Source: Escherichia phage FFH2. Taken from it: a stretch of 64,000 nucleotides of DNA. Below are positions 32,201 to 43,274 of the stretch, one piece after another. Position numbers and translations under genes: made by a program. Below the pieces are notes generated by a model. The model worked only from the letters and a program-made list of their open reading frames with translations, did no database searches and was not told the origin of the DNA. Where the stretch lies: sequence record KJ190158; one strand, written 5' to 3'. How positions within the stretch are numbered: position 1 is the stretch's first letter; each line of letters starts with the position of its first letter.

Positions 32201-32807
32201 AGTCTAGGATCACCAAGGCCGCGTTATTGGTATACACCTCTTTACTGATACGAGGATCATAGCATTTTTTACCAACCTTGACAAGTGTAACGTTTGGCAA
32301 CCCAAAAGGAAACTTGTTAGGGTCAAACCTGAAGCTGGCACGTAGCCAACTGATCCCTCTACCTATCATGTCGGGTGACCATGATGGGCAGTGTGTACCC
32401 ATGAAAGGATCAGATGTTTTTCTGTCGTTATGTAGCTCCCACGATACCAGATCTCCATACGAGGAAATAGGATTACCGTCGATAAGTATATCTTCTACAC
32501 CTTCCAGAGGGTGATTGGCAAGAACAATAGCACAATGGAGGGTTCTGTCTCTGTCCTGCTCCAAAAACGCAAGCAATCCAGACGTACGTGTCTTACCATA
32601 CACTACAGAGCAAGGTGCAGCAGAAGATCTGAGAAGCTTTTGTCTATCTTGCTGACTTCTGTAAGATTTGTTGCCCTCAAAAATCTTATCCAGAGTTCTG
32701 GTGGTAACAGTGTTCAGGCTGTCAGCCAGAGCTGCCTTGGATGCGTTCCAGTCATAACTTGAAGATCTTGCAGAAGCAACGATGTTATCAATCATTGCAA
32801 TTGGCAT
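29208..32807 (-). CDS. Central fibre or host-specificity J-like protein (1199 aa)
   Basis: Globular N-terminal half, long heptad coiled-coil region, C-terminal GxFxG repeats (TSGTFRGDVYANNGSFRGTIDATGGTFRG); follows three small tail genes in a lambda M-L-K-J-like order. Confidence 0.5.
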   Translation of the reverse strand: MPIAMIDNIVASARSSSYDWNASKAALADSLNTVTTRTLDKIFEGNKSYRSQQDRQKLLRSSAAPCSVVYGKTRTSGLLAFLEQDRDRTLHCAIVLANHPLEGVEDILIDGNPISSYGDLVSWELHNDRKTSDPFMGTHCPSWSPDMIGRGISWLRASFRFDPNKFPFGLPNVTLVKVGKKCYDPRISKEVYTNNAALVILDYLRTYLKCPDETINWESFKEAANICDEAVKNADGTSERRYTINGEFDMDEAPASIMAEMLKACGADLSYVAGKYGLLVGAYYGPATMTLSEDCVCGEVKIYPEASFDKRSNTITGRFTSPTKGYSETDFPSVFVPEWIEKDGERKIIDIDYRFVTSPYQAQRVSAIFLRRARAGRIIEVTCNMRGFKFKPGRYVTMDLPSIGIVGQEMRVLEWEFTKKGGVKVKLRQDAKEWNDATGQLPDSGDVDIPISPSGVAQPQNFRYSVLQAGEVTHGVLAWDNVGTYAQNIVQVRKNGEIVWTAQTVEQFVRVEGLTKGSYTATVVATSYKGGVSPEAYCEFNIQAPEAPVSVEVKQGYFAITLIPHSRDLASVSTQYDFWTSGMTRLPDTSDATVTSKATRMGVGSTWTSEGLQNDKIYYWYIRTTNAFGSSAFVECAAHCYTSIEDLMPQIDAEFKKTETYKELTANLDNAVKEMDKNVGAVNDRVTSIFEELGDTIEGVVRETTEKFTGVNGEISALNSKLVAAQQSFDDKLAAESGRLGSLIETTNRSTVDLVNRKTQALSEQITATQGTLREELKNTESKLNSSIQETNKATTDLLNKTTEAIKQDLVAATGKITKLEDDVQKEVANLQASIQETNSTTVDLVNNTATAIRQELTSAKQEIVDEMGNIDELRATVSNTSKAVTTLEGKIDAQWGAKIQVDSAGNKYVAGIQLGMEGSGGQVQSYFMVSANNFAVYNPGNGTATLAFAIKNNQAFLKDAFIENGTISSAKIAQEISSNNYDGNGYHKYGWYINKNGHAQFMDVWVKGNINASSGNFTGAVNATSGTFRGDVYANNGSFRGTIDATGGTFRGRVEASVIRANQFEGAIVAHRTYGDCAPVYNSQQRVCRWRWRYVDNVSGQGKNVTFFFKLNGTLASSQLNAWIAGHQILAGKKYFNDNNGMCAVGITGLGEQTIDIVIEIYTPWSTSSVTGVTISCPTVIVSRSNSSFQGPWNESHD

Positions 32808-33244
32808 TAATACCTCCAGACATCAACAACGATAGAATCTTTCATGTCGAACATAAAGACCCCTTTATCACCTTTCGCCCAAATCTGGTTGTTCCAGAAC
32901 ACACCAGCGGTGAGCCCGTTCAGACCTTCGAAAATGACAATATCTCCACGCTGAACCTGTTTAGGAGTATCCAGCCGAGTCATAAAGAGATCAAAAATAG
33001 TAGGCAGGTGTGTAGTTTTGAAACGAAGCATGCACCATCTTTTGCTTTCCAACTCTGTTTTATACGTTCCTTCGAAGTTGGAAAGAAAATCTGTTCCGTA
33101 TTGGGCATCAACACACTTAGCCGCAAAGGTGCAACAATCGTGGAATCCCCATTCAAAAGGTATGGTGGCCTCTTCGTCAAACACTTTCCACAATCTTTCT
33201 TGCCAATCAACTAAACGAGGGTGTGTGCTCATTAAACCTCCCAA
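32807..33244 (-). CDS. Small tail protein, possible NlpC/P60-like peptidase fold
   Basis: Position upstream of J-like gene; FHDCCTFAAKC segment with Cys/His; weak. Confidence 0.3.
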   Translation of the reverse strand: MGGLMSTHPRLVDWQERLWKVFDEEATIPFEWGFHDCCTFAAKCVDAQYGTDFLSNFEGTYKTELESKRWCMLRFKTTHLPTIFDLFMTRLDTPKQVQRGDIVIFEGLNGLTAGVFWNNQIWAKGDKGVFMFDMKDSIVVDVWRY

Positions 33245-33798
33245 ATGATCGGGCGGCTCGCCACCTGATCCACATATTTAAAAAATCTGTCATTATCGTT
33301 TCTTGAGCTGTGGCTTTCCTCCGTGTACCGATAAGGAAAACCTCTTAACCAACTGTTGAAGATGGAAGAGATGGATATTGACAAAGCACTATTCTCACCT
33401 GTCTGAATAGCCATATCTGTTATAAGGCCGTCAAACAAGCCATTAGTTGTGACAGGTAGACCATTCTCCATAGCGGTAATGTACAACGTGGCACGACAAC
33501 CAGAATACTCCGTCTTCAGCAGATCACCCACATACTTAGGATCAAACCCGTTCAATGTTGCTACCACAGATCCGAAGTTGGTGGCATCTTTCTCAGACAC
33601 AGCAGTTAATGTTGCTGATCCCCCTATCCCTATAAAATGTTGCCCCTCAATTACTACAACACCAGTGCCTGAGCACACCCTGACAGTTCCTGTCGGTAGC
33701 TCCAGCTTTGCAGCAATTAAGATCTCAACACCATCAAGCTCCAGCTTTTCAAGAAATAAATTATCTAATGGCGCTCTGATCATCTTAGAAATCCTCAA
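33232..33798 (-). CDS. Tail protein (188 aa)
   Basis: Gene order only. Confidence 0.35.
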   Translation of the reverse strand: MRISKMIRAPLDNLFLEKLELDGVEILIAAKLELPTGTVRVCSGTGVVVIEGQHFIGIGGSATLTAVSEKDATNFGSVVATLNGFDPKYVGDLLKTEYSGCRATLYITAMENGLPVTTNGLFDGLITDMAIQTGENSALSISISSIFNSWLRGFPYRYTEESHSSRNDNDRFFKYVDQVASRPIIWEV

Positions 33799-34473: not shown

Positions 34474-34806
34474 TTAAAGTGCTTCCAAGGTGGATACTGA
34501 TGGGTCGAACATGTTCAACCTTATCGGATCTACAACTTTTCCGCTTTTAGAGACGATGTTTTCTGCATCCTCGTCCAGAGCCAGAACGTTAACATAAAAC
34601 AATTCACTTTTCTCGCAAACCTGGTAGACAACCATGTTGCCAAATTCATCTTCGGCCTCATAAGTGTCTCCAGTCTCTGTGTAAATGAACCCGACAACCT
34701 CTACAAGAAGGGTGTTTTGCAACACCTCATTCTCGTAAAAGCCGATTTCGTCCATGAAACCGTTAAAATCCTCCCTGTCAGTAAACCCAAGGGTAAAAGT
34801 ATTCAT
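34474..34806 (-). CDS. Acidic hypothetical protein (110 aa), possible fibre chaperone
   Basis: Start overlaps stop of the 1479-aa fibre gene; strong UUCG terminator follows. Confidence 0.35.
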   Translation of the reverse strand: MNTFTLGFTDREDFNGFMDEIGFYENEVLQNTLLVEVVGFIYTETGDTYEAEDEFGNMVVYQVCEKSELFYVNVLALDEDAENIVSKSGKVVDPIRLNMFDPSVSTLEAL

Positions 34807-37800
34807 TATTCAACACTCTCCATCATAAGCTGGGTGTCTGTCAGTGCAGAGTTCCAAACTCTTATGTCCTTAATATGACCAAATAAGTGTCTTTCACCTG
34901 TCGCCGTTTGACCACCAATGCGGATGAAAGCGCCTCCTGCTAGGAATTCCCAAGAAGACTGCGTTTCCGTGCTCACCAGTCCGTTAGCAAAAGAGCAGGT
35001 TTTACCGTCATCTTTTATCCTGAACCCAATTTTCAATTTACGGGCTTTAGCCATCTCGTAAACACGTCTGTTTGACCCTCCAATATCACAGTATGGATAA
35101 CCGTCCTCCGCAATATTTGTTGCAGAGCCAAACCCCATGATAAATGAAGCACCGGATTGATGACCCTCTGTATCAATAACCCTAGGGGCTGCGTTAGGAG
35201 CTTTGCCCCAGCCTCTCCAGTTGGCATCAACCGTAGCGGCGATAGTGAATGGTCTGGGAGCTAGGTTATCCGTCATTGGGAATTTACAAAGATCTGCCGC
35301 CCTGGTTACAGGTGAAGACCCTGTAGGGATAAACGAGGACTCACAGGACCCTAACTCAAATTGAGGTATTGCAACATCAACCCAATCTCCTACGGCATGT
35401 TGAGCACCTTCTGGTGGAGCAATTTGGAACTGGCACCCGATCTTATTGTCAGAGGCCACTGCTTCAAACGTAGCAGCAATCCTTATCCAAGCAGGACCTG
35501 CTGTTTGCCATCTCTCAGCTTTTACTTTAATTCTCCCAGCTGCATCCCCTGTTGTTTTAACTTCAAGTGTTGACAGGTTAACATAAGCGTCACCTTGGAA
35601 CACCGTGGTGGATCCATTGTACATGTCGAATCTTACACGCAGTCTCTGGTGGGCTTTACCACCTCTTGCAATAATAGACCCAGTACAGAATTTCTCAGCA
35701 CCTGTCACATCGGCACCCCTGGTGGCTGGAACAGTGGCAAGGTTTAACGCTGTTGTTTCTACACCGGATGTGGTGTTTACTGTAAATCTTGCGCCTTTTG
35801 TGCCGTTAGTATTTGTTACAGTGCTACCGACAGTAATCGCTTGCTGTGCACCCCACTTGCTTGGGTCCTCACTGTTGAGCATGAGGTTTGTCCTTTGCCC
35901 CTCGATAAGCAACCCATCTCTTTCAAAACGTGGTTGGTTTGCTTGTGCAACAGCCATAACACCCCGCTTAGTGAAATAGGTTGCTGTAGAAGGTCTGGAA
36001 AATACCATCTCTCCCTCACCAAGTGCAGGTTTTAAGTTGGAGGTCAAAGGTAACCAAAGATCAGGCATAACTGGGGCTGTTGTGCTTTCCGGGAAGCTTG
36101 TCCTCTTCCAAGGACTCCAAGCCATTCCACTACCAGTGTTATTATAATACCTTTCCCATGTTCCACCAAGGTACATCTTATAGATCTGAATACAGCCCGT
36201 GCCTTCGTTAGCAGAGTTTCTAAGCACAATTAGCGTACCAGCCATCTGCTGTCCAGGCGGGTAATGTCTTTCAGCTGTAGCATTAGCATTCGCCTCTTGA
36301 TGGTAGATACCTTCACGATCTGCTTTATAATCGTTAAGGTCGCTATTCCCCAGTCCTTGACCACGGTGCTGAATAACCTTGTTCCACGCTCTGTGATTTC
36401 CCTGCTCTATGGAACGAGTATACAGCTGATCTAAGCGACCTGCTATCTGGAAAGCATAGTTCCCAGAGAATGCCACAGACAACCCGCCAACAACCATCGA
36501 ACCTTCAGGCCCGTTAACATTACCAGCCATTATTTTAGAAGGGTTGTTATTCCCGAACTGGTTGTTCCAGTCTGCACCTGTGTGGCATACAAAACCACCC
36601 GGTGCTGAGAAAGTACCATCCTTGTTGAAGTTGTAGAATCTATGAGCTGTGCCTACAACATCGCGAACAATAACTTGACCCGCTTCCGGAGTAGATCTGA
36701 ACTCTGCCTGACCTTTGAGACCAGCACCATTACCGCATTTAGAGGTAAACGTACCGTTAGTCAGATCCTCTGTCCCATCGGATGCACACTGGAATCCTGC
36801 ATTAGAGAATAACGCCTTTCTAGGACTGCCGTAGCACAAATAGTCAAGACCGTCTGCCCATAGCTCGACTTTTGGCATATTCATTTTGCTCATCACAGCA
36901 TAGCGTTCAGCAGAACCTATATAGTGCCACTGTGTGCCGCCACCAGTGTAGAATCCTGAAGTACCTTTGAAGTCAACAATAGGTCTGGTATTGGTGTTGT
37001 TATCTCCAAGAATAGCAAGATTCAAATCTGCTGATTGAAGAGGTGCAACGAACTTAACCCCATCCTGATTGTTTGTTACAGAGCCGACTTGATAATCTTG
37101 CTCTCTGGTAAACACTTCGACAACATTTCTACTTGCGTATATGCTGACAGGGAAAGCACGAGCCTCTGCATAGAAAGCAACATACTCTTGTTTACCCCTT
37201 GTTGGAGCAACCATCCCAAGAAGTGCTTTTTCATTCTGGTAGAAATTTACTACCCCGTAGAAAGAGTCTCCCCTGTCCGTCCAGCCGCCAGTTCTATAGT
37301 GACACTGCAGGGTGGCACAGTTCATAGGGTCATTTCCAGATGAAGACCTGGTGACTATAGTAATATCTGTACCTGTCGAAGGGGCGTAATACGGATCTGT
37401 TCTAACGATGATTGGGTAGTATTTCCCATCTTCCATTCCTGCAGTTCTTGGCAGTGTTAAGAAGTCTTTTACACCTGCTGCTATAGGAACTTTGAACAGA
37501 TTCTGAGCATCTGCTAAAGTTGTAGCCCCGGTGCCACCTGCGGCTTGAGGTAGAGGTTCCCACTTGGCCTTCCGGTTGTTATAAACACCCCATTCCAGAG
37601 CGCCGTTACCGGATTCGTCCATCCCACCATCCCAGATAACCATCTTGGCGGCTTTCTTGGACCCCCAGAAGCCTCTTTCTGCTCCTGAACTACGAATCCA
37701 CTCTCCAAGTCCCCAGTTTGTCAGCTGACCAGTAAGATCCCCAACCTGCATGTATTTAGGACAGTCTAACACGCCGTCTTCGCGGAAACCTAAATATCTA

Positions 37801-39245
37801 TGGGTTTCAGATCCTTTTGCACCTTTGTGCAGGTGGATTGTCAACCAAGCCTTATTGTCGTTTCTTACCTCAGAGTAGATCCTATATCCATGCTCAAGGA
37901 CACCGTCAGCGCTGTATTTGTCCCCGTTAACAATACCTGATGCTGACTTAACATCAGCAGAACTTTGAGACAGGTAAAGGTGCCCGAAGGTAGGGGAGTT
38001 TCTAGACCCGAGACCGATGTGCGATCTAAAGGTATCATCGTTACGAGGTCTGACCATTGGCTGCCATGCAGTCCACTGGTTTGTGTTGGCCTGATAGGTT
38101 CTCAAATACCAAACATCCACGTTAGAGAATGGATAGTATTCCTGACGACAACCTGTACCGCCGTTAGCATTGTTCTGCCAAACAATCAAGTGACCAGCAC
38201 CAGAACCTGCAGGGTAACCATTTGCCTCAGTTGCATAAGCAGTCATCGGCTGGTAGTATACACCATCCTGATTACCAGTCAAGTTATTGATATTGAAATT
38301 TGACTCAAGAGCTGCACGTTGCTTATAGAAAGCCCCTAAGTTAATGCGTGCACCTGCGGCATCTCTGGCCCCCGTACCGCCTTGCTCTATAGCAAGAGGC
38401 TGCCACGAGGCTGTTTGTTGGTTCCACATGCCCCAACGGCCTGTTGCGTCAAGCTGCAAGTACCCTGCCGTGTTTAAATCATCTCCAGCACGGATAACTG
38501 TTCTTGTTGGGGTGTTTGCCTCCAGGCGTTTAAATTCATCACGAAGTGCTATTCTTTTTGTTGTTGCTACACCGTTGGTTACTGCAATGGTATACATGGC
38601 TCCGGATGTAGCGCCACGGAAAATACCATCAACAGTTGTAGTATCACGACGAGATACCACACCGTTCAGAAATTTTTCACCAGCTGCTACAGAAGGGTAG
38701 TTGGTGGTTCTTCCCTCTTCAATAACTGCAGGACCCACAAAGTTATCAAGGTGAATAACATCACCTACAGTGTGCACCGTACCAAAATCTACACGCTGTG
38801 CAAGTGCTTTAGCATCGTTAGCTGTCTGAACAGTAACATCCATTACATCCTGGACAGACTGCCCTTCGGCTGTCATGATCATAGATGCGCCAATGGTAGA
38901 TTCCAGCTCCTCCCTTAGGGACGGGTCAGTATATACCATCCATGCAGCGTCAGTAATCCCACCATCGGAGTACGGTGAAGATAGTGCAGGAACAGTGTGT
39001 GGAAATTCGCCTTTCCAACGCAGGTAGAGATCTTCCTCTTCGAAATAGGCAAAATCCATTGGGCCGTTTAACTTACCACCTTCCTTAAAGGAGATTACAT
39101 GAGAAACAGTCCCATCCACATGGACAACATCGCCAATTTTTACACGACGGGTCAGGTCTGGTTGTTGAACAACCAGGTAATCATCCTCTGTCACTGCGGT
39201 AGTGGCAGGAAGAGATTCGATTCTGACAACTTTAATATCAGCCAT
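34806..39245 (-). CDS. Giant tail fibre protein (1479 aa) with N-terminal anchor domain
   Basis: First ~95 aa paralogous to 41880-42548 product (DDYLVVQQPDLTRRVKIGDVV, EGGKL, DFAY, WKGEFP); Gly/Asn/Thr-rich remainder. Confidence 0.55.
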   Translation of the reverse strand: MADIKVVRIESLPATTAVTEDDYLVVQQPDLTRRVKIGDVVHVDGTVSHVISFKEGGKLNGPMDFAYFEEEDLYLRWKGEFPHTVPALSSPYSDGGITDAAWMVYTDPSLREELESTIGASMIMTAEGQSVQDVMDVTVQTANDAKALAQRVDFGTVHTVGDVIHLDNFVGPAVIEEGRTTNYPSVAAGEKFLNGVVSRRDTTTVDGIFRGATSGAMYTIAVTNGVATTKRIALRDEFKRLEANTPTRTVIRAGDDLNTAGYLQLDATGRWGMWNQQTASWQPLAIEQGGTGARDAAGARINLGAFYKQRAALESNFNINNLTGNQDGVYYQPMTAYATEANGYPAGSGAGHLIVWQNNANGGTGCRQEYYPFSNVDVWYLRTYQANTNQWTAWQPMVRPRNDDTFRSHIGLGSRNSPTFGHLYLSQSSADVKSASGIVNGDKYSADGVLEHGYRIYSEVRNDNKAWLTIHLHKGAKGSETHRYLGFREDGVLDCPKYMQVGDLTGQLTNWGLGEWIRSSGAERGFWGSKKAAKMVIWDGGMDESGNGALEWGVYNNRKAKWEPLPQAAGGTGATTLADAQNLFKVPIAAGVKDFLTLPRTAGMEDGKYYPIIVRTDPYYAPSTGTDITIVTRSSSGNDPMNCATLQCHYRTGGWTDRGDSFYGVVNFYQNEKALLGMVAPTRGKQEYVAFYAEARAFPVSIYASRNVVEVFTREQDYQVGSVTNNQDGVKFVAPLQSADLNLAILGDNNTNTRPIVDFKGTSGFYTGGGTQWHYIGSAERYAVMSKMNMPKVELWADGLDYLCYGSPRKALFSNAGFQCASDGTEDLTNGTFTSKCGNGAGLKGQAEFRSTPEAGQVIVRDVVGTAHRFYNFNKDGTFSAPGGFVCHTGADWNNQFGNNNPSKIMAGNVNGPEGSMVVGGLSVAFSGNYAFQIAGRLDQLYTRSIEQGNHRAWNKVIQHRGQGLGNSDLNDYKADREGIYHQEANANATAERHYPPGQQMAGTLIVLRNSANEGTGCIQIYKMYLGGTWERYYNNTGSGMAWSPWKRTSFPESTTAPVMPDLWLPLTSNLKPALGEGEMVFSRPSTATYFTKRGVMAVAQANQPRFERDGLLIEGQRTNLMLNSEDPSKWGAQQAITVGSTVTNTNGTKGARFTVNTTSGVETTALNLATVPATRGADVTGAEKFCTGSIIARGGKAHQRLRVRFDMYNGSTTVFQGDAYVNLSTLEVKTTGDAAGRIKVKAERWQTAGPAWIRIAATFEAVASDNKIGCQFQIAPPEGAQHAVGDWVDVAIPQFELGSCESSFIPTGSSPVTRAADLCKFPMTDNLAPRPFTIAATVDANWRGWGKAPNAAPRVIDTEGHQSGASFIMGFGSATNIAEDGYPYCDIGGSNRRVYEMAKARKLKIGFRIKDDGKTCSFANGLVSTETQSSWEFLAGGAFIRIGGQTATGERHLFGHIKDIRVWNSALTDTQLMMESVE

Positions 39246-39280
39246 TCTTTCTCCTGAAAGGGGGCAAACAGCCCCCTATG

Positions 39281-41878
39281 TTAAAGGTACAATCCACGGT
39301 ATTGAGCATAAAGGCCCAAACCGCGAAGGATTTCGCCAGAGTGGTAGCCCACCGGATCAGAAACTGCCCAGCAGCCGTTTAAAACATTATCCCCATTAAT
39401 GAAGTGGTGCTTTTGCAGCAGCTTCACACAGGCTTCTACAACAATATCTATTTGGGGTATTGTCTCCGAATACCCGCACAGACCTAGCCAGCAGCAGCCT
39501 GCAAGCCATTCACCTACCACCCACATCCTGTCTCCTCTGTCCTGATAAGAATATCCCCCAGAGGTGTTAAAGTCTGTAGGTAGATTTCCTGAATGAGATG
39601 ACTGGAATCTGTTGAGGAACCATGCCCATTTCTGGCAGAACAGGAACAGTCTTTCATCAACAGGTTCTTTATGTTTCTTGAGCTCATATATTGTGCGGCA
39701 CGCAGCAACAAAAGATCTTGACTGGAGCTTAGAGTTATCTACCATCTCCCACCAACCAGTCAACCCCTCATTACCTCTCTGCCATACATAACGTGAGGCA
39801 ACTGGACCCTCTGTCTTAAATGTATTGTTATACCAGACTTGAGCGTCATACAGAAAGCCTATTGTATTTGACAATCTATGGCGATCTATGTTTTCTGCAC
39901 CCATGCAGTATACTGCTGGGTATTGCATGCCAGGGTAGGGCCAATTTGGCTTTTCCTCTAAGAGATAGTTTTCCTTATCTATCACCTTTCCGGCAGGGAA
40001 CACACCTGGTGTGTGCCTGTATGCACCTTGCTTGTAGTTTCTGACATAGCAATCACCAACCTTAGCGGTTGATTCTGTCTTGCTTGCCATCCATACGCTA
40101 AACCATATTAGATAAGCATCCCTATCTGCAATATAGAACTGCGGCAGCGTGTTTACGCAGTACAGATCAAACAAGCCATTACCTATCTGCCTGTCGCTTA
40201 GGCTGAAATCTACAGAGGTGAGCCCCTTAGGATTAGCAAAGAAAGGTTTAATCTCTTCTTCGGTGTGATGAGGTTGTGTCGGATCTAGTTTGAAATCTCC
40301 TAGAGTAAGAGTTTCTGTTATCCATTGTCCATTAGTGGCATATAGATCAGCATACCATAACCACCTATCTTTGTCAAGAAATTTGACCCTTACCATCTCG
40401 TCATCTGATCGATAAGTTACTGAGTTTAAAGAAATCTCTCTCCCAAAATTGAAAGTTACTTTACCTCTTGCTATATTACAACGGGTGAAGTTGTCAGAGT
40501 GGTTGTAAATGTCGGTATCATACTGCATACTAACACTAGCGCCACCGCTTACGACAATGTTTTCCTCTTTAGGTAAGAGATACGGATTACCGTCTTTACC
40601 AACTACCTCTACGAAATCAGTAACCTTGGCAACTATTTCTGTTACCTCTGCCCCTCCAAAAGGAACCCCTATCCTGTACTGTTTTTTGTTATTGTTGCCA
40701 TCATTAAGGATGAAATGTGGCTGGAACAGAACCCCTTCTCCTCCGAAATTCATAACAATTTCAGCATCTCTGCCTATTTTGTATGTAGTCCCTTTTTGAA
40801 TTATTTCGCAAGGCTGGCGTGCGTTCATTCTAAAATTGATATACCCGTCACTGTCCCTGCTCATGGCAGGAACTGTTCCTGCAACAAGGCAAGTACCATC
40901 TGTAAACGGTGCCTTAATCAACGTGGTCTTCCTAAACAGTTTGTCGTAGGCGTTTATATCACTGAAATTAAGCAATTTGTTGTAAGACTGTTTAAACGCG
41001 GTGTAATACTTTTCCTCACCTGTCAAGGTGTAGAGTTGATAACAAGCGTCACACCACATTTCTTCCCCGTCCAACTCTGGGGCCTGATTATCTGCAACCA
41101 CGTTTATAGGATTTACAATTACAGGGGATCCTGCAGGTATCACCGATCCGCCCTGCTCTTGAGGTAATCTTACACAATAGGTCACCTTGTGGCTGCCTGT
41201 AACACCCTTATCTTGTAATTGGATTGTGCCGAACTCTACAGACGTATGACCACTGTCGGCTATGCTACCGTTAGCCCAATAGCGGTTACCATCCCATGCT
41301 ATGTACCACTCAACCCACCAACTTAATCCGGATGTTGTCCAATCTGGGTTAGCATCTGTGCCACCGTAAACATCAGAGTCTACAGTGTTTCTTCCTAACA
41401 CACCGTTATACGCTTGGAATGCCTTGTCAAGGTATTCCCCCCATGTCGGAGATCCAGCTGGGATTTTTCCTCTACCGTTGGTAAAAGACACCACCACATC
41501 TTTAAACCCACCATGTGATGGAACCCCATCTGTGGATAGAGGGTAGTGGGACAATCTTTGCATTTTACTTTCTACTGCATATGCACCCAGAAGATGGCTA
41601 TTGTAAGCTTCCCAAGCATCTTTTGCCCTATCCAGATAAAAATCGCTTTTCGATGCCCTGTATGCTTCAATGTATCCCAGAATCAACACAGCTTGGGACT
41701 CATGCATTGCCCAATCATTATTTATCTTATTACCTGCCCACCCTGCAGCTATAAGACCATCAGGGTTTACTAGCTTATTTTGTGTAGAGGTGTTGGTAAT
41801 ACCTGTGTTGTTATCGAGGCACTTCCTGTGCCCCTCAATCATCTGAAATACGTTATCAATGTTATGTTGAATACGCAT
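39281..41878 (-). CDS. Large Trp/Tyr-rich globular protein (865 aa), putative glycan-degrading tailspike partner
   Basis: ATG 1 nt after stop of the 222-aa anchor gene (TAAGATG) with no own RBS; enzyme-like rather than fibrous composition. Confidence 0.4.
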   Translation of the reverse strand: MRIQHNIDNVFQMIEGHRKCLDNNTGITNTSTQNKLVNPDGLIAAGWAGNKINNDWAMHESQAVLILGYIEAYRASKSDFYLDRAKDAWEAYNSHLLGAYAVESKMQRLSHYPLSTDGVPSHGGFKDVVVSFTNGRGKIPAGSPTWGEYLDKAFQAYNGVLGRNTVDSDVYGGTDANPDWTTSGLSWWVEWYIAWDGNRYWANGSIADSGHTSVEFGTIQLQDKGVTGSHKVTYCVRLPQEQGGSVIPAGSPVIVNPINVVADNQAPELDGEEMWCDACYQLYTLTGEEKYYTAFKQSYNKLLNFSDINAYDKLFRKTTLIKAPFTDGTCLVAGTVPAMSRDSDGYINFRMNARQPCEIIQKGTTYKIGRDAEIVMNFGGEGVLFQPHFILNDGNNNKKQYRIGVPFGGAEVTEIVAKVTDFVEVVGKDGNPYLLPKEENIVVSGGASVSMQYDTDIYNHSDNFTRCNIARGKVTFNFGREISLNSVTYRSDDEMVRVKFLDKDRWLWYADLYATNGQWITETLTLGDFKLDPTQPHHTEEEIKPFFANPKGLTSVDFSLSDRQIGNGLFDLYCVNTLPQFYIADRDAYLIWFSVWMASKTESTAKVGDCYVRNYKQGAYRHTPGVFPAGKVIDKENYLLEEKPNWPYPGMQYPAVYCMGAENIDRHRLSNTIGFLYDAQVWYNNTFKTEGPVASRYVWQRGNEGLTGWWEMVDNSKLQSRSFVAACRTIYELKKHKEPVDERLFLFCQKWAWFLNRFQSSHSGNLPTDFNTSGGYSYQDRGDRMWVVGEWLAGCCWLGLCGYSETIPQIDIVVEACVKLLQKHHFINGDNVLNGCWAVSDPVGYHSGEILRGLGLYAQYRGLYL

Positions 41879-41879
41879 C

Positions 41880-42548
41880 TTAGATAGCTCCTGCGATAAT
41901 CAGTGCCCCGTACCAAGTTAACCCGTTGTCGTAGGTTTCCAACTTGAAAATATCTGTTGCACCAGCTGTAAATGTTAGGATAGGATCTCTTCCGTAGGAC
42001 CATTTAACATTACCAGGCCAATAGACTTTGTTGCCGCCAGAGGTCTGAGTAATGCATACGGTTATAGTTCTCGCCACCCCTTCAAGACCTTCTGTTTGAT
42101 TTTCAAAAGAGATTGTGGTATTTGAAGTTAGTCGAACCTTAAAGGTATCCGCAACTTCAAGATCCATATCAAGCTGACCACCGATAGATCCGTAATCAAC
42201 TATTCTGCCAGAAGAAGTTGCAGCAAGCTCACCAAAAACAGACCAGGCATTTGCAGACACGCCCCCAGCACCCTCTACGGTGGAGTCTGGGAGGATTATT
42301 TTAGGATAATCCCCGTTCCACGTGTAGTAGCGCTTAGTCTCTGGGTCATAAGCAAAGTCCTTCTTGCTCTTAAGATAACCACCCTCTGTGAAATAGACTA
42401 TCTTAGTAATACTAAGATCGTTGACAACATCGTCAATCTTAGCCTTTCTTGTCCCATCAGTCTGGTTGACAACCAAGAAGTCATCACTCAGGACTGTTTC
42501 TGCATCTTCAAGATCTGGAATTGGTATTGTAGGATAAGCTACAGCCAT
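41880..42548 (-). CDS. Anchor or adaptor domain protein (222 aa)
   Basis: N-terminus paralogous to that of the 1479-aa fibre. Confidence 0.45.
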   Translation of the reverse strand: MAVAYPTIPIPDLEDAETVLSDDFLVVNQTDGTRKAKIDDVVNDLSITKIVYFTEGGYLKSKKDFAYDPETKRYYTWNGDYPKIILPDSTVEGAGGVSANAWSVFGELAATSSGRIVDYGSIGGQLDMDLEVADTFKVRLTSNTTISFENQTEGLEGVARTITVCITQTSGGNKVYWPGNVKWSYGRDPILTFTAGATDIFKLETYDNGLTWYGALIIAGAI

Positions 42549-42557
42549 GATTTCTCC

Positions 42558-43274
42558 TTAGTTAACATCAATAGCACGACCAGACTGGTTGGCAATAGCC
42601 TCATCATTGGAGGTAGCAATAACACCAGAGTATTCGCGCTCATCTGGAGCAAGCGTCCAGGTATTGCGGTTAATGGTTTGTTCTGCCTCAGTCATCAGCA
42701 GATCTTTATCCTGAGTCAACAGAGAGCCTACAGGGATCGGATTTTCCATCTCAGGGCCAGCATACTGGTTCCACCATGTGGCATCTCCTGTTCTAGGCAA
42801 TCTGAAGTTGATCAGATAGTACAGTTTATTAGCCCACTTAATCCAACCCTCATCATCACAGAGAGAGGTTGTCCCAGAATCAGGCTGTGGGTAGGTGAAC
42901 TGATCAAGACCTACGAAAGCCAGCCTTACAATCTCGTTCTCTTTGGTAACAACCTCAAAGAACGCTTGGTATGTTCTCGATCTTCGATCCATGGTAGACT
43001 GGAAGTTTATGATGTTTAGCACATCCGGCTCTTGTCTTGCCACTTCCATGATCTTGTTATCAAGAACAGTCTTCATGACCTTCTTACTGAGAAAGTCCAT
43101 ATAAGGGAAGCCAAACAACTCGTCAAAGTACCAGCTCCCCTTCCACGTATTAAACCTCATCCACAAGCGCTGGCGCAGACTTACCTGGTTTGAATCTATC
43201 AACTCAAGACCTTTGTCTATTGCCAAATCGCCTGTTTGTGGGTCCATCAATATATCACTATAAAGCGTAGCCAT
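42558..43274 (-). CDS. Putative baseplate protein (238 aa)
   Basis: Gene order. Confidence 0.35.
   Translation of the reverse strand: MATLYSDILMDPQTGDLAIDKGLELIDSNQVSLRQRLWMRFNTWKGSWYFDELFGFPYMDFLSKKVMKTVLDNKIMEVARQEPDVLNIINFQSTMDRRSRTYQAFFEVVTKENEIVRLAFVGLDQFTYPQPDSGTTSLCDDEGWIKWANKLYYLINFRLPRTGDATWWNQYAGPEMENPIPVGSLLTQDKDLLMTEAEQTINRNTWTLAPDEREYSGVIATSNDEAIANQSGRAIDVN

Follow-up and report, generated by a model that had tools for sequence, protein, structure and literature searches.

A docking-type N-terminus shared by a lateral tail fibre and a small adaptor-like protein paired with a predicted (alpha/alpha)6-barrel protein in the rV5-like phage FFH2

Within the window analysed here, a stretch of 64,000 nucleotides from Escherichia phage FFH2 (sequence record KJ190158), a tail fibre of 1479 amino acids (aa) and a protein of only 222 aa have similar N-termini, and the gene for the small protein lies directly upstream of a gene for an 865-aa protein, which raises the question of whether the small protein is an adaptor by which the larger one is held on the virion. 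The three open reading frames (ORFs) were found on the minus strand exactly where an earlier note on this DNA had placed them, at 34806-39245 (1479 aa), 39281-41878 (865 aa) and 41880-42548 (222 aa), and their products are already annotated as tail or tail-fibre proteins. The window belongs to a Vequintavirus (an rV5-like myovirus), and the 7.7-kb region is 97-98% identical to many Vequintavirus genomes, for example those of BASEL phage JeffSchatz (Bas55) and Mangalyan. The three genes are orthologous, with 91-99.7% identity, to rV5 gp41 (1272 aa), gp42 (865 aa, 99.7% identical) and gp43 (222 aa), all of which were detected in rV5 virions by shotgun proteomics/mass spectrometry (PMC3606486). 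The explanation that we consider probable overall is that the three genes are part of the lateral-fibre module of an rV5-like myovirus and that the 222-aa protein, as a docking-domain adaptor, and the 865-aa protein, as a barrel head, form a side appendage.

The similarity of the two N-termini, claimed in the earlier note, is borne out by a single significant BLASTP alignment, in which residues 7-105 of the 1479-aa protein match residues 8-105 of the 222-aa protein with 38 identities in 99 positions (38%), 55% positives, one gap and an E-value of 3e-18, and all of the motifs quoted for it (DD[FY]LVVxQxDxTR[KR]xKIxDVV, EGGxL, DFAY and WxGxxP) were recovered. When a hidden Markov model (HMM) built from the two N-termini was run against the six-frame translation of the window, no third copy was found. 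The shared region is a composite of two modules, A (residues ~1-45) and B (residues ~46-105). Module A of the 222-aa protein (42414-42548, minus strand), which contains the N-terminal motif ...DDFLVVNQTDGTRKAKIDDVV and is a putative baseplate-anchoring segment, aligns with residues 1-45 of the 1479-aa fibre. It also opens phi92 gp140 (E = 6e-8) and phi92 gp143 (E = 4e-7), the latter being an experimentally characterised endosialidase tailspike, and it stands likewise at the start of a 157-aa and a 921-aa protein of ESCO5, so that in both phi92 and ESCO5 module A begins both a small gp140-type protein and a gp143-type tailspike. Module B of the 222-aa protein (42234-42413, minus strand) is a tailspike "head" domain of the Pfam family Tail_spike_N (PF18668, TSP1/Gp66), which was detected with 41.0 bits in the 222-aa protein (residues 51-105) and 40.5 bits in the 1479-aa protein (residues 46-103), both above the curated gathering cut-off of 25 bits. 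Sequence matches of module B in the PDB include the heads of CBA120 TSP1, TSP3 and TSP4, gp13 of entry 9occ and Gp48 of entry 9d84. The corresponding modules A and B of the fibre (residues 1-105; 38931-39245, minus strand) are paralogous to those of the 222-aa protein, as indicated by BLASTP, PF18668 and the PDB tailspike heads.

In CBA120, ultracentrifugation has demonstrated that TSP1 and TSP3 are docked through their head regions onto TSP4/TSP2, which serve as anchor proteins (PMC8825819), and with PF18668 present in both FFH2 proteins and head attachment established experimentally in CBA120, the view of the earlier note that the common N-terminus is a docking-type module holds. In phi92, gp151 (locus L015, 21320-23281) carries an N-terminal module B (PF18668 head, E = 4e-14) without module A, and its C-terminus gives a marginal match (E = 0.02) to the C-terminal domain of the 222-aa protein. 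Since gp151 has B without A, the two halves of the anchor appear to be independent modules that recombine between fibre genes. Judged from sequence comparison, the shared region is thus a real attachment-type module that is shuffled and that in part corresponds to a known Pfam domain.

The 222-aa protein, which belongs to PHROG 7760 (E = 8e-120), is orthologous to rV5 gp43 and related to phi92 gp140. In its structural model, only the C-terminal ~105 residues are modelled confidently (pLDDT, the predicted local distance difference test score, ~90). This C-terminal beta domain (C-domain, residues ~116-221; 41886-42203, minus strand), to which phi92 gp140 matches at E = 4e-35, has the gp9/XD1 fold seen in fibre-attachment proteins and is proposed here to be the platform for the 865-aa protein. 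Because a word-indexed protein search proved insensitive (4 matches for the 222-aa protein, 6 for the 865-aa protein), homologues were sought by profile and exhaustive searches. A tblastn search found 522 phage records with the C-domain and 523 with the 865 family, and the two sets have almost the same counts per genus. Ten lineages were sampled, namely rV5-like Vequintavirus, Phapecoctavirus ESCO5/phi92, Rosemountvirus SE13, Kolesnikvirus Tian, the jumbo Seoulvirus SPLA1a, Vibrio myovirus D509, Crifsvirus A24, Salmonella phage 7-11, an SU10-like contig and the T7-like Aeromonas phage Atoyac15 (Autographiviridae), and in all ten an 865-type gene directly follows, or at its start overlaps with, a small gene whose product ends in the C-domain. 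The N-termini of these adaptors are mutually unrelated between lineages while the C-domain is retained. In Atoyac15 the adaptor begins with the tail-binding domain of T7 gp17 (PF03906, E = 1.5e-11), and the tail module has no fibre genes besides those for the adaptor and its 937-aa partner. The pair comes after the tail adaptor gene in SU10-like phages, at the position occupied in SU10 by the genes for the proximal and distal long fibre; the N-terminus of the Salmonella 7-11 adaptor gave no match to SU10 gp12, and this equivalence is one of gene position only.

The more two lineages agree in the C-domain, the more they tend to agree in the barrel as well (r = 0.65 for the pairwise identities). 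The 865-type proteins have no anchor of their own and start, at their own residues ~1-25, with a conserved helix [LI]xxGHxxFLxxNTGxT, which in the FFH2 protein occupies residues 1-28 (41795-41878, minus strand) and is a putative docking peptide. Distant homologues of the barrel are covalently fused to tail modules (lambda-J-like Phage-tail_3, Collar and an N4 gp65-like sheath protein). Taken together, the pairing, the exchange of N-termini, the database counts, the co-variation and the fusions make a tethering role of the small protein, analogous to that of the K1-5/SP6 gp37 adaptors and to the branching of CBA120, the most economical reading. A split into adaptor and enzyme between the 222-aa and 865-aa proteins, as the earlier note had proposed, is strongly suggested by the conserved pairing with exchanged N-termini and by the near-equal database distributions. 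No description of an obligate pairing of an XD1-like adaptor with an alpha/alpha-barrel protein across morphotypes was found in the literature.

Possible Rosetta-stone fusions (P0084, P0086, P0088 and P0131), in which the barrel carries an N-terminal extension of ~278 aa whose last strand, "...YLFFYTFDQGNTWNG"-like, is similar to how the adaptor C-domain ends, were not used as evidence. They fell short of significance and are a point against the adaptor interpretation: the C-domain HMM gave a weak match to P0086 (E = 5.6e-4) and none to P0084 or P0088, and an hhalign comparison was non-significant (1.9% probability).

The 865-aa protein (39281-41878, minus strand), orthologous to rV5 gp42 and related to phi92 gp141 (35% identity, E = 9e-178), is predicted to be an (alpha/alpha)6-barrel glycosidase-like tail protein. 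In the AlphaFold2 model the helical hairpins of the barrel are formed by residues ~54-97, 269-319 and 664-862, and beta domains are inserted at ~124-247 and 329-613. Its nearest fold neighbours are without exception hydrolases, lyase-type hydrolases or epimerases; the fold prediction is of the six-hairpin glycosidase type, in line with the expectation of the earlier note, which had made its reading depend on the presence of the protein in virions and on an enzymatic fold; rV5 gp42 was found in virions (PMC3606486), and the predicted fold is enzyme-like. Among phage depolymerases the alpha/alpha toroid has been catalogued as a fold, though as a rare one (~1%; PMC11326577, PMC12491483). The term "enzyme-like" is accordingly supported at the level of the modelled fold, and a catalytic role, like its substrate, is putative.

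How far the enzymatic half of this interpretation holds was weighed against the possibility that the adaptor model is right and the 865-aa protein is non-enzymatic, with the barrel and its beta-sandwich inserts forming a lectin-like or structural head. Several observations count against an enzyme. The model was built from six sequences and is of moderate confidence only (pLDDT 64). No Pfam or NCBIfam family, of glycosidases or otherwise, was found above threshold for the 865-aa protein, the best matches to glycoside hydrolase (GH) families being obtained with homologues only and lying below threshold (GH76, E = 0.006; GH47, E = 0.24). Furthermore, several sites that are near-invariant in the family are changed in the rV5-type protein (for example PNGD to INND, NAxDAE to PELDGE and HM to WV), and because of this loss it may bind glycans rather than cleave them. 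The 99% identity of the gene across isolates within the genus would suit a conserved ligand, though it is uninformative on catalysis. Against a non-enzymatic head stand the closest folds named above and the acidic residues E60, D270, E272 and D277, which are invariant across the ten lineages including FFH2, as is Q62 (E60 and Q62 being in a TTEGQ-like motif); these acidic residues are candidate catalytic residues, proposed from conservation. On balance a non-enzymatic head is possible, and we think it somewhat unlikely. The TTEGQ and NAxDAExW motifs presumably resemble GH8 signature motifs, a likeness that no tool supported and that is not claimed here. Sequence searches of PDB chains were dropped as a route to the identity of the protein, as no specific match was obtained: the single 865-aa sequence matched no chain, and the family profile gave only weak, generic hairpin matches (cellobiose 2-epimerase, GH76).

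The adaptor half of the interpretation faces a different alternative, in which the 222-aa protein stands alone, as a stub of a fibre or a decoration of the baseplate, with its C-domain as a distal, receptor-contacting tip, while the 865-aa protein is held in another way, for example by its own N-terminal helix on the baseplate or on the 1479-aa fibre, and the adjacency of the genes reflects co-regulation only. The fold of the C-domain is widespread at the ends of ordinary long phage fibres (240 matches in BFVD), and the C-domain homologues P0052 and P0054, which are tied to the 222-aa C-domain only through a profile built in this analysis (E = 8e-16 and E = 1e-12), have a small Laminin_G_3 gene next to them and lack a barrel partner, so that the C-domain is not exclusive to barrel proteins and might itself act as a fibre tip. 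For CBA120, XD1 has been described as a spacer and not as a docking surface (PMC8825819), and the authors of the phi92 structure name gp140 by itself as a candidate fibre (PMC13450770). These points weigh against the adaptor and agree with a stub fibre. However, a stub fibre does not account readily for the pairing in ten of ten lineages and the nearly equal database counts (522 and 523), for Atoyac15, where the 937-aa partner has no possible tether other than the stub with the gp17 domain, or for the SU10-like phages, where the pair replaces both the proximal and the distal fibre gene, and we therefore regard it as unlikely. With respect to P0052 and P0054 themselves (loci L010, 6001-7621, and L013, 1219-3039), both contain DUF5907 repeats and the next gene encodes a Laminin_G_3 protein of ~225 aa (a ConA-like lectin); the family PF26209 (Phage_phiTE_241_C, found at the C-terminus of small fibre proteins) was never reported in local Pfam-A scans, even for these two proteins, which carry it as a precomputed match.

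It is improbable that, as the "same site" wording of the earlier note implies, the two N-termini are interchangeable and compete for one baseplate site, with the virion carrying a mixture of both proteins, for although the module-A pair of FFH2 is more alike (17/44 identities in global alignments of the first 45 residues) than either member is to its phi92-group counterpart (11-14 of ~42), which is compatible with co-evolution on one acceptor, both proteins are rV5 virion components (PMC3606486), phi92 has six fibres in each of three separate sets, whose attachment points are distinct (PMC13450770, PMC8594841), the long and short fibres of Bas63 share an N-terminal binding-domain fold yet dock at different wedge sites, and an identity of 38% leaves ample room for site specificity. 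An attempt to distinguish the same site from different sites by the orthology of the anchor paralogues of FFH2 and ESCO5 was abandoned, as the global alignments gave no clean pattern. Among the chains of solved relatives (9mjn, 9cuy and phi92 21vq), the N-terminus of the 222-aa and 1479-aa proteins was not found, these relatives being matched via the sheath initiator only.

Returning to the adaptor-plus-barrel interpretation, the parts might work together as follows. The shared A+B region would fix both the fibre and the 222-aa protein, as trimers, at the baseplate's periphery. From this docking region the fibre would continue into a long shaft with an exchangeable receptor-binding tip, and the 222-aa protein would end after its single gp9/XD1-like beta domain. 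That domain would offer the platform to which the 865-aa protein attaches, presumably by way of its conserved N-terminal helix, and the two proteins together would make up a short side appendage consisting of an adaptor and a glycan-binding or glycan-cleaving head, which may act on a conserved surface polysaccharide during adsorption. The trimeric state, the contact between the 222-aa and 865-aa proteins and the docking site are what we infer.

The junction of the two genes had been offered in the earlier note as a sign of translational coupling. It reads ...ATC TAA G ATG... (GCAGGAGCTATCTAAGATG), with one nucleotide between the stop and the start codon, as described, and this proximity is compatible with coupling. 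However, the accompanying argument that the second gene has no ribosome-binding site is wrong, as a Shine-Dalgarno motif AGGAG (41888-41892, minus strand) is located 9 nucleotides upstream of the ATG (41876-41878), within the 3' end of the 222-aa gene, and the Mangalyan record marks a ribosome-binding site at the equivalent place, as does that of phi92 upstream of gene 141. The gaps between genes of the operon are similarly small (-1, -1, 12, 9, 1, 35, -1, ... nucleotides), so that the tight junction is the local norm and not a mark of this pair. The interpretation put forward in the earlier note is therefore largely reasonable, and overstated with respect to coupling and to a common docking site.

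Comparison with known receptor-binding systems shows where the FFH2 arrangement agrees and where it departs. The tailspike systems of CBA120 and other Kuttervirus phages (TSP1-4) and of G7C (gp63.1-gp66) employ beta-helix tailspikes, whereas FFH2 has a long fibre and an (alpha/alpha)6-barrel protein, and the 1479-aa protein matches fibre families and not beta-helix families. T4 gp10-like XD2/XD3 jellyroll docking domains of the CBA120/G7C type were not detected in FFH2, whose adaptor, unlike the proteins of that type, has no catalytic body of its own. The viruses also differ, the FFH2 pair belonging to a Vequintavirus, CBA120 to the Ackermannviridae and G7C to the N4-like phages. With gp37 of K1E/K1-5/SP6 and with the branching receptor-binding proteins of the KP32 type the likeness would be that a small tail-binding adaptor tethers a separately encoded enzyme that has no anchor, and this adaptor-plus-tailspike concept has been described (PMC6872550, PMC13352976 and, for phi92, PMC13450770). 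The likeness is closest in the Atoyac15 homologue of the 222-aa protein with its T7 gp17 N-domain, whereas the N-domain in FFH2 is of the PF18668 type and not of the gp17 type. As far as compared, gp37 and the C-domain of the 222-aa protein have no sequence relationship. Moreover, the partner in K1-5/SP6 is an endosialidase or a beta-helix protein, whereas in FFH2 it is an alpha/alpha toroid and the anchor is a myovirus baseplate module. With the six-hairpin (alpha/alpha)6 hydrolases of families GH105, GH88, GH76 and GH8 the 865-aa protein shares the predicted fold without family-level membership by sequence, and unlike theirs its barrel is split by ~350 residues of inserted beta domains.

The direct homologues of the pair are gp140 and gp141 of phi92, which stand in the same order of sheath initiator, adaptor and barrel protein. 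The two phages differ in that phi92 gp140 lacks module B (the head), which is found on gp151 instead, and in that the large protein with module A is the endosialidase tailspike gp143 in phi92 and the 1479-aa fibre in FFH2. In phi92, fibre II joins the base of fibre I, and published maps leave fibre II unassigned (PMC13450770); the 2026 structure lists gp140, but not gp141, among the candidates for it (PMC13450770). In the metagenomic representative P0084 (1795 aa), an 865-type barrel (residues 278-1190) is followed by an N4 gp65-like non-contractile-sheath module (residues 1214-1762), which consists of NCTSP_N plus a TIM barrel, and the same two modules are encoded by the neighbouring genes for gp141 and gp142 in phi92 and ESCO5. 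As P0084 joins both modules in a single polypeptide, this suggests that gp141 and gp142 belong to one appendage.

The 1479-aa lateral tail fibre (34806-39245, minus strand; PHROG 6578, "tail fiber") is an allele of rV5 gp41, to which it is 91% identical over residues 1-1049, and its tip differs thereafter. The exchanged tip (residues ~1050-1479; 34809-36098, minus strand), which has no similarity to the tip of rV5 gp41, contains a GTA/head-spike-fibre domain (NCBIfam NF048003 at residues 1113-1317, E = 4e-21; PHROGs 1419 and 5939) and a ConA-like lectin end with a weak match to Laminin_G_3. The tip of rV5 gp41 is reported to be of the endosialidase-type (intramolecular) chaperone kind (PMC3606486), and the FFH2 fibre tip agrees with the allelic variation among large fibre genes of BASEL phages (PMC8594841). 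The start of a 110-aa ORF (34474-34806, minus strand; PHROG 1361) lies 1 nucleotide within the fibre gene's stop codon. JeffSchatz and Mangalyan, whose fibres have the same tip allele, possess this ORF too, and rV5, in which the gap between gp41 and gp40 is only 100 nucleotides, lacks it; the product of the ORF may be a tip-specific assembly chaperone.

All genes of the region are on the minus strand and form a classical myovirus tail/baseplate operon in the order tape measure, tube initiator, plug, hub, spike, sheath initiator, the three genes discussed here, and more baseplate/fibre genes. The sheath initiator (42558-43274, minus strand) has 238 aa, only residues 1-171 of which match solved relatives (9mjn, 177 aa; 9cuy, 163 aa; phi92 gp139, 211 aa), leaving a C-terminal extension of ~65 aa that is encoded directly upstream of the 222-aa adaptor gene. 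At 32807-33798 (minus strand), the mechanical ORF list gives TTG starts and overlaps of 13-14 nucleotides for ORFs of 188 aa and 145 aa; in JeffSchatz the products are annotated as shorter (183 aa and 141 aa) with abutting junctions, so that translation probably begins at internal ATGs. Amid the baseplate genes, the 145-aa product carries the annotation of a CHAP/cell-wall hydrolase. Among the database matches, ~23 unannotated MG0656xx records are labelled "Campylobacter phage" (C12, C14, A12a and others; matches H1-H5 and H12); over this region they share 97-98% identity with rV5-like phages of E. coli, and the host label looks doubtful.

A wider interpretation, which we advance only tentatively, is that the two genes form a portable cassette that has moved between morphotypes (myoviruses, jumbo phages and T7-like and SU10-like podoviruses) by exchange of the adaptor N-terminus alone, that in rV5/phi92-type phages this cassette is the lateral fibre II, made in phi92 of gp140 and gp141 and possibly also of the N4 gp65-like gp142 as P0084 suggests, and that the barrel proteins represent a new class of depolymerase with a conserved target. 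Modular anchors and adaptors are an established principle, and the gene pair is a further case of a modular receptor-binding system, for which the adaptor-plus-enzyme reading is well supported by inference from sequence. The rV5-like phages are among the most frequently isolated coliphages of broad host range, and the assignment of genes to their lateral fibres has been called "far from clear" (PMC8594841), with a similar statement in PMC13450770; gp43/gp42, the counterparts of phi92 gp140/gp141, as an adaptor-plus-barrel unit would be a testable candidate for one of the unassigned appendages. The pair also points to a rare family of alpha/alpha-toroid, enzyme-like tail proteins in more than 500 phage genomes, and, since the N-terminus of the adaptor is the part that changes between morphotypes, it may be a natural "plug" for grafting the barrel head onto other phage chassis.

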